Shown: positions 54,415 through 54,659, numbered from the stretch's first letter. The stretch is 64,000 bases of DNA from Escherichia coli (GCF_003334305.1 NZ_QOWS01000023.1); one strand, 5' to 3'. Program-made: numbers and translations. The notes: generated by a model not told the origin, from the sequence alone.

Positions 54415-54576
54415 ATGGAATTTTCGTTTTCACCCAAACTTCTTGTTGTTGCTGTCGCCGCCGCTCTTCCTCTCATGGCCAGCGCAGCAGATACCCCGTC
54501 AACTGCCACCGCACGCAAAGGCTTTGCCGGATACGATCACCCAAACCAGTATCCACAGAACGCTGCAATTTATTGA
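54415..54576 (+). pseudogene. aslA: aslA (arylsulfatase) remnant: 53-codon ORF with signal peptide only
   Basis: [29 protein letters not shown]... stops after 53 codons; only 83 bp separate its stop from the convergent aslB 3' end, whereas K-12 aslA is ~551 aa (from memory). Confidence 0.65.
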
Positions 54577-54589
54577 ATTTGCACGATCA

Positions 54590-54627
54590 TGTAGGCCGGA
54601 TAAGGCGTTTACGCCGCATCCGGCAAT
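54590..54627. repeat. REP element between the aslA remnant and aslB
   Basis: TGTAGGCCGGATAAGGCGTTTACGCCGCATCCGGCAAT palindrome. Confidence 0.8.
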
Positions 54628-54659
54628 CAACCGCAGGCGGCCACAAAATGGCCGCTTTT

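Follow-up and report, generated by a model that had tools for sequence, protein, structure and literature searches.

The region considered here, positions 52540-57966 of the window (the whole 64,000-nucleotide stretch of Escherichia coli DNA that was analysed), contains hemY (+), glmZ (-), a 53-codon ORF (+), a REP element, aslB (-), four tRNA genes and thrP, in that order. The features on which the analysis draws are the following; in the short motifs given here and below, a caret marks the position of a break or cut.

53784-53990, minus strand: glmZ sRNA gene (Rfam RF00083 GlmZ_SraJ, 218.4 bits against a gathering score of 60, full model 1-214)
53991-54414, no strand: AT-rich divergent intergenic region between glmZ and aslA, 424 bp, retained
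54415-54576, plus strand: 53-codon fusion ORF, with an ATG start and a TGA stop at 54574-54576
54415-54553, plus strand: 5' remnant of aslA, codons 1-46 plus one base, encoding the signal peptide and the first mature residues
54522-54537, plus strand: CTTTGCCGGATACGAT in aslA, a 15/16 direct repeat of CTTTGCCGGATGCGAT, the start of the lost REP region
54554, no strand: junction base C, which is T in both parental flanks, GTATC^T in aslA and GCC^T in the inverted REP (iREP)
54555-54590, plus strand: retained BIME linker ACAGAACGCTGCAATTTATTGAATTTGCACGATCAT, identical to the inter-REP linker of K-12-like and O157 spacers
54591-54624, plus strand: retained REP GTAGGCCGGATAAGGCGTTTACGCCGCATCCGGC, GTAG plus palindrome, repeated in the window and in the genome
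54635-54661, plus strand: intrinsic-terminator-like hairpin and T-run found by terminator scan (hairpin 54635-54657), the original aslA terminator, retained
54660-55895, minus strand: aslB, anaerobic sulfatase maturase gene, an intact single ORF of 411 aa from the annotated ATG, with its stop codon at 54660-54662
56042-56478, minus strand: tRNA-Pro/Leu/His/Arg array (ARAGORN and Rfam tRNA matches), which flanks aslB and provides a synteny anchor

K-12-like, O157 and B2-like loci with an intact aslA all share the order and orientation hemY-(glmZ)-aslA-aslB-tRNAs, as the initial annotation of this DNA had assumed for K-12, and the synteny hemY-glmZ-aslA'-aslB-tRNAs of the window agrees with them. 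The same annotation held that glmZ, the 5' region and aslB are retained, and this is supported by the glmZ score of 218.4 bits and by the single intact ORF of aslB. The glmZ copy adjoining the deletion is intact, with a terminator-like hairpin at 53818-53789 identified by terminator scan. The intergenic region 53991-54414, a putative promoter region for both glmZ and aslA, is collinear with that of aslA-intact genomes at ~99% identity.

Several variations were noted in the vicinity. A 15-nt direct repeat, CTTCCTGAGTGAATA, is present in 1.9 copies at 54068-54097 upstream of glmZ and may be a candidate for the binding of a regulator. Strain PM4-5 has an IS1 with a 9-bp target duplication (2442-3209 of its locus) at the equivalent of 54032-54040, 42-50 bp from the glmZ 5' end on the upstream side; the IS1 separates the glmZ core promoter region from the remaining intergenic region and might alter glmZ regulation in that strain. 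Strain NQ3 and some other genomes possess an extra ORF of 591 bp between hemY and glmZ (NQ3 locus 3687-4277), encoding the hypothetical protein WP_001260226.1, which is found neither in the window nor in K-12. Finally, at 52417-52497 within hemX (51290-52537) the hexamer ACCTGC is repeated perfectly in tandem, 13.5 times, giving HemX a (Pro-Ala)13 run close to its C-terminus. The length of HemX varies with the number of repeats: 393 aa in K-12-like genomes, 395 in O157, 401-405 in B2-like genomes and 415 in the window.

The 53-codon ORF had been taken for the true 5' end of an aslA gene from which most of the sequence has been deleted. Its first 139 nt are indeed collinear with nt 1-139 of K-12-like aslA at 139 of 139 positions, apart from a single SNP at 54440. 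K-12-like aslA, 1,656 bp long and encoding 551 aa, starts at the same ATG, which disposes of the proviso that the K-12 gene might begin elsewhere and that the short ORF would then be an unrelated leader. The other details of that description, namely a 53-codon ORF with a signal peptide and the peptide sequence given for it, a REP element, and a distance of 83 bp to the convergent 3' end of aslB, were likewise all confirmed. A GGAG sequence lies 8 nt 5' of the ATG. The stub keeps the signal peptide and 22 mature AslA residues, while the last seven codons and the stop codon of the ORF derive from the BIME linker, and the fusion product consists of the signal peptide and 29 residues.

In intact AslA the Pfam sulfatase domain PF00884 covers residues 86-418 and is fully lost from the stub, which ends at residue 46. 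The Ser-type (C/S)-x-P-x-R formylglycine motif, SSPTR, is located at residue 136 of the intact protein and thus falls in the deleted part. As both the sulfatase domain and SSPTR are gone, the allele is null for AslA. An NCBIfam scan of the 53-aa product returned no family match. The 138-bp stub is recorded by PGAP/RefSeq as a pseudogene in all 15 of the carriers fetched, 14 of them with the label "arylsulfatase; incomplete; missing C-terminus" and ATCC 8739 with an equally incomplete "hypothetical protein". Four SNPs are present in the ORF among 16 genomes, and all of them are nonsynonymous (F3I, L9R, L10F and A33V), a pattern that fits a lack of sequence constraint. Transcription and translation of the stub may continue, yielding the signal peptide and 29 residues, a product that would be functionless.

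The breakpoints of the deletion were mapped base by base against the K-12-like, O157 and B2-like loci. On the left flank the window corresponds to intact aslA through nt 139 (54553), and on the right flank it corresponds to the aslA-aslB spacer from 54555, directly after the first REP. The net loss is 1,578 bp, comprising aslA nt 140-1656 and the first 61 bp of the spacer, and the deletion fuses aslA codon 46 to the BIME linker; glmZ, the divergent intergenic region, the aslA terminator and the convergent aslB are kept. Between the two flanks lies the C at 54554, which is found in 16 of 16 deletion-type loci. A parental GTATCC in aslA or GCCCAC in the iREP, either of which would explain this base, was not found among ten intact loci. 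The junction reads …CCAGTATCCACAGAACG… (30-mer CAAACCAGTATCCACAGAACGCTGCAATTT), and with T instead of C it would read …CCAGTATCTACAGAACG…; the observed form is a simple marker of the lineage.

Undeleted K-12-like and O157 spacers carry a two-REP BIME made up of the iREP (…CCAGCCTAC), a 36-nt linker and the REP (GTAGGCCGG…). The deletion drops the inverted REP and leaves the linker and the second REP in place, and the right breakpoint coincides precisely with the outer edge of the iREP, …GCC^TACAG. The suggestion that a REP marks the junction needs adjusting: the retained REP is not at the junction, but the outer edge of a second, lost REP of the same BIME, 36 nt upstream, is. The retained REP folds as a DNA hairpin of -12.2 kcal/mol (z = -4.4). 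Its 30-nt core has three further copies with at most two mismatches in the window, against 0 expected, and when a 1.4-kb query that contains it is run with megablast, the median number of places matched per E. coli genome is 27.

At least four REP/BIME forms of the spacer, of 157/158, 167, 101 and 90 bp and with differing REP content, occur among aslA-intact genomes, which indicates that the site is prone to rearrangement. The segments compared were the following.

54555-54659 of the window
5972-6129 of locus L001
5972-6138 of locus L007
5972-6061 of locus L005
200-300 of locus L023

The 157/158- and 167-bp forms have two REPs each, the 101-bp form has one different REP, and the single REP of the 90-bp form is a hybrid, as expected if 68 bp had been lost between CGCATC repeats. 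The aslA terminator of the window is also found in O157 and B2-like spacers and is 9 bp shorter in K-12-like genomes. The hairpin is altered in K-12-like genomes and in SCU-108, with GGCGGCCGCCGATTT in place of GGCGGCCACAAAATGGCCGCTTTT (54643-54656), and the stem-loop shared by the window, O157 and B2-like strains is disrupted in K-12.

Two surveys were performed on the same set of 5,426 complete E. coli genomes. In the first, positions 53600-55000 were used as a megablast query, answering the earlier proposal that the deletion be followed across the species. The short arrangement is found in 1,728 of the 5,426 genomes (31.8%), at 98.8-100% identity; the remaining genomes match only to 54553 and carry a 1,656-bp aslA annotated as "arylsulfatase AslA". 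In the second, full-length K-12 aslA was the query: at least 80% of the gene is present in 3,694 of the 5,426 genomes, and the rest have only the stub, which ends exactly at aslA nt 139 in all 13 of the rows sampled. About four genomes are covered by neither count (3,694 and 1,728) and must be in another state, and E. coli is essentially dimorphic at the aslA locus. An assembly artefact was ruled out by the occurrence of the arrangement in 1,728 complete genomes. Strain SW071611 has an IS1 inserted in an otherwise intact aslA, an independent inactivation which shows that aslA can disappear by rare alternative routes as well.

The junction and spacer are identical in the 16 of 16 carriers compared at sequence level, and these carriers sit on two aslB haplotypes with dS = 0.12 between them. 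Compared site by site, the flanks are mosaic, with switch points beside the junction. Strain 2017-03-3CC is window-like from ~53598 to 54667 and shows K-12-like states from 54684 on. ATCC 8739 is K-12-like on both sides, and only ~240 bp around the junction are window-like. That two or more flanking haplotypes carry an identical junction, down to the C at 54554, indicates a single event, and the sequences suggest that one deletion was later moved into other backgrounds by homologous recombination. Both ATCC 8739 and HS presumably belong to phylogroup A. The deletion would have occurred once. Vertical descent would account for its spread in phylogroups B1 and C, the groups named in the literature, and homologous recombination for its entry into some backgrounds of phylogroup A.

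A published gene-level survey reports aslA as absent from phylogroup B1 (ST155, ST58, ST156), phylogroup C (ST410) and ST101, and as present in phylogroups A, B2, D, E, F and G (mBio 2022, PMC8844930). The assignment of the deletion to B1 and C is taken from that study (PMC8844930). The commensal strain HS is reported to be without aslA, and K-12 and BL21 to have it (PMC5180367). The view of the genotype as a notable one does not stand: 31.8% of complete genomes have the arrangement, PGAP annotates it, and the absence of the gene from B1 and C is published (PMC8844930).

The neighbouring aslB has the features of a complete maturase gene. AslB matches the anSME equivalog TIGR03942 with 519.4 bits (cut-off 349.45) and the SPASM domain TIGR04085 with 66 bits (cut-off 27), and the radical-SAM motif CxxxCxxC is present as CNLNCDYC at residue 21. 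A full-length, one-piece aslB was found in 5,425 of the 5,426 genomes, and the gene is intact in 16 of 16 carriers, with no frameshifts or stops. Its dN/dS between lineages is 0.05-0.13. Within the main deletion clade aslB shows 8 nonsynonymous and 5 synonymous polymorphisms (13 sites), and in a control clade with intact aslA it shows 8 nonsynonymous and 9 synonymous (17 sites; Fisher p = 0.48 against the deletion clade). No relaxed selection on aslB after the loss of aslA was detected, in a comparison that has little power with 13 + 17 polymorphic sites. As individual variants, the T228K substitution of the window AslB is shared, among 14 clade members, only with strain 99RCEF, and WP2-S18-ESBL-07 is the one genome of the 5,426 in which aslB is truncated, after 891 nt.

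Two further sulfatase genes are nearly universal. The ydeN gene, found in 5,333 of the 5,426 genomes, encodes a protein with a signal peptide and the Ser-type motif SGPSR, and adjoins the maturase gene ydeM, whose product of 385 aa keeps the CxxxCxxC motif (L013 24123-25280). As no more than 93 genomes are without ydeN, at least ~1,635 of the carriers must still have it. The yidJ gene, with the Cys-type motif CTPAR, is found in 5,114 of the 5,426 genomes. A few genes away from it in K-12 lies yidF (L014 18707-19204), which encodes 165 aa without a radical-SAM motif; being both short and devoid of the motif, it does not provide a complete maturase gene near yidJ. The anSME class of enzymes can oxidise both the Ser and the Cys of sulfatases, and on this ground AslB could act on YdeN or YidJ.

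The description of aslB as a maturase without its substrate was accordingly overstated: with ydeN and yidJ near-universal, and aslB conserved in every lineage regardless of aslA, the gene is not clearly left without a substrate, and YdeN (SGPSR) and YidJ (CTPAR) are the candidates that remain in the carriers. It would persist as an independent transcription unit with work beyond AslA, for example the maturation of YdeN or YidJ, although YdeN has a neighbouring maturase gene of its own, ydeM. The reason for the retention of aslB is much less certain than the nature of the 53-codon ORF.

Taken as a whole, the evidence indicates, with a probability that we put at roughly 0.9, that the 53-codon ORF is a dead deletion remnant of aslA, the gene for a periplasmic Ser-type arylsulfatase, and that it represents a null allele of single origin. 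Three other readings touch on parts of this. That the ORF is now a functional gene for a small secreted peptide, the signal peptide plus 29 residues, is extremely improbable. The start codon, the GGAG, the signal peptide, the upstream region and the downstream terminator are all kept and the ORF is open in 16 of 16 carriers, yet the low diversity is accounted for by the single origin of the allele, every SNP within the ORF changes an amino acid, no family is matched, the seven C-terminal residues result from accidental read-through into the linker of a repeat element, and PGAP calls the stub a pseudogene. Hardly more credible is the reading in which the REP makes the site a hotspot and the same deletion arose independently many times. 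Rearrangements of the REP/BIME spacer are indeed several, and the deletion lies on aslB haplotypes that differ by dS = 0.12. Recurrence was rejected nonetheless, because the junction is the same everywhere (16 of 16), including a C that neither parental flank encodes; the 16 loci, and likewise 13 further rows of stubs, showed neither a T at the junction nor shifted endpoints, and the ~240 bp of window-like sequence between K-12-like outer flanks in ATCC 8739 is the signature of import by recombination. The third reading, in which aslB in the carriers is a substrate-less orphan decaying too slowly for the decay to show, is unlikely, if less so than the other two. It draws on the 8 nonsynonymous to 5 synonymous polymorphisms of the deletion clade against ~7 to 25 fixed differences from O157 (Fisher p = 0.016), and on one carrier with a C297Y change, by which a cysteine is lost within the SPASM-profile match 282-371 of AslB. 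The p = 0.016 signal, a comparison of polymorphism with divergence, was discounted, as the control clade with intact aslA has the same kind of excess (8:9, p = 0.48). The lack of frameshifts and stops in all 16 carriers, the unbroken full-length gene of 5,425 among the 5,426 genomes, and the presence of other sulfatase genes also speak against an orphan.

As to how the deletion arose, the sequence around the breakpoints suggests REP-associated illegitimate recombination, a route that is much less certain than the status of the ORF as a deletion remnant. When the REP1 region is aligned locally with both strands of the complete 1,656-nt aslA, the top match is CTTTGCCGGATACGAT, whose end lies 16 nt short of the left breakpoint; an equal or better match was obtained in 9 of 1,000 codon shuffles of aslA. 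The dinucleotide CT at both parental break sites provides a 2-bp microhomology. Together, the 15/16 repeat and the CT would have brought aslA codons 36-47 into register with the inverted REP, and the join would have formed at the outer edge of the REP through illegitimate recombination or slippage during replication, guided by the imperfect repeat. A T-to-C change at the junction base would have accompanied the join or come after it. The crossover is not within the 15/16 repeat but 16-21 nt past it, so classical short-homology recombination is not a full explanation of the join. Nor is the C at 54554 predicted by a simple parental join, and an extra mutation or an unsampled parental allele must be assumed. 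The REP-like stretch in aslA and the new junction form weak DNA hairpins (-5.8 to -6.1 kcal/mol, z -1.3 to -2.0), which leaves a pseudo-REP hairpin in aslA unsupported as a structural cause.

The other route considered is that the REP transposase TnpA_REP (RAYT) made the deletion by excising a gene-sized segment of 1.58 kb. The enzyme would bind the retained GTAG REP on the plus strand and cut single-stranded DNA at C^T within the iREP CTAC and at a distant C^T in aslA; the outer ends would be joined and the segment would leave as a circle. TnpA_REP needs and binds a REP with a 5' GTAG, and cleaves ssDNA in the iREP at the type II site (G/T)(G/T/A)CC^TAC(A/C/G); cleavage also occurs at further C^T dinucleotides, at distances above 400 nt, and excision by the joining of two such cuts has been proposed (Ton-Hoang et al. 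2012, PMC3333891). In the intact allele the right breakpoint reads AGCC^TACA, which fits 7 of the 8 positions, and the left one GTATC^TGG; the GTAG REP is kept on the same strand, and the predicted joint GTATC-TACAG matches the observed length and 13 of 14 bases. The observed joint is however GTATC-CACAG in 16 of 16 carriers, with C in place of the predicted T, and the mismatch falls on the very base to which the enzyme would link. The CT microhomology yields identical endpoints without an enzyme, and CT is a frequent dinucleotide, found 90 times in aslA. At 1.58 kb, the distance to the left site exceeds any tested in vitro, and the match to the cleavage site was noticed after the fact. Furthermore, the GC skew of the plus strand is negative in 7 of 8 window bins, which makes the cut strand the leading-strand template, and related Y1 transposases (IS608) prefer the lagging-strand template, a point of analogy and not an established requirement of TnpA_REP. 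Excision by TnpA_REP is unlikely, although it deserves slightly more weight than the orphan reading of aslB. If this were true, the aslA deletion would be a naturally occurring trace of TnpA_REP/RAYT acting on the chromosome, and REP elements together with a domesticated transposase could delete neighbouring genes and shape lineage-specific gene content.

The locus and the polymorphism are the same as those recorded in PMC8844930 and by PGAP, both of which give presence or absence only. The aslA deletion is an ordinary, frequent and already annotated allele whose gene-level distribution is published; what is added here is the exact junction and the size of 1,578 bp, the REP context with its REP-edge breakpoint and 15/16 repeat, the single origin and recombinational spread, and the retention of aslB everywhere. 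The TnpA_REP excision model (PMC3333891) resembles the present case in the CC^TAC endpoint at the iREP edge, the kept GTAG REP, the C^T at the second endpoint and the BIME variants. That model concerns the excision and amplification of BIMEs, whereas here a 1.5-kb gene segment is lost and one junction base does not fit. The aslA deletion is also typical of lineage-specific losses in E. coli by short-homology or microhomology deletion, from which it differs in nothing material: it shares with them one ancestral event, a clean junction with 2 bp of microhomology close to an imperfect repeat of greater length, and fixation across whole phylogroups. Klebsiella atsA/atsB, in which AtsB is the maturase of AtsA, and other pairs of a Ser-type sulfatase with an anSME resemble aslA/aslB in the SSPTR motif and signal peptide of AslA and in the neighbouring AslB of TIGR03942. 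In the window, by contrast, the sulfatase is deleted and the maturase stands alone, and aslA and aslB are convergent and do not form one operon.

The universal retention of aslB suggests a role of the maturase beyond AslA, and the breakpoint at the edge of a REP adds one more case of repeat elements at the endpoints of rearrangements. The wider meaning concerns aslA itself, which has been treated as an "acquired" gene of invasive isolates or linked to mortality or to phylogroup B2 (PMC11879602, PMC11565901). aslA is an ancestral core gene lost by one old deletion that marks about a third of sequenced E. coli, and associations of aslA are for that reason largely a proxy for phylogeny. Caution is therefore called for in the many genome surveys in which the presence or absence of aslA is scored as that of a "virulence" or "invasion" gene.
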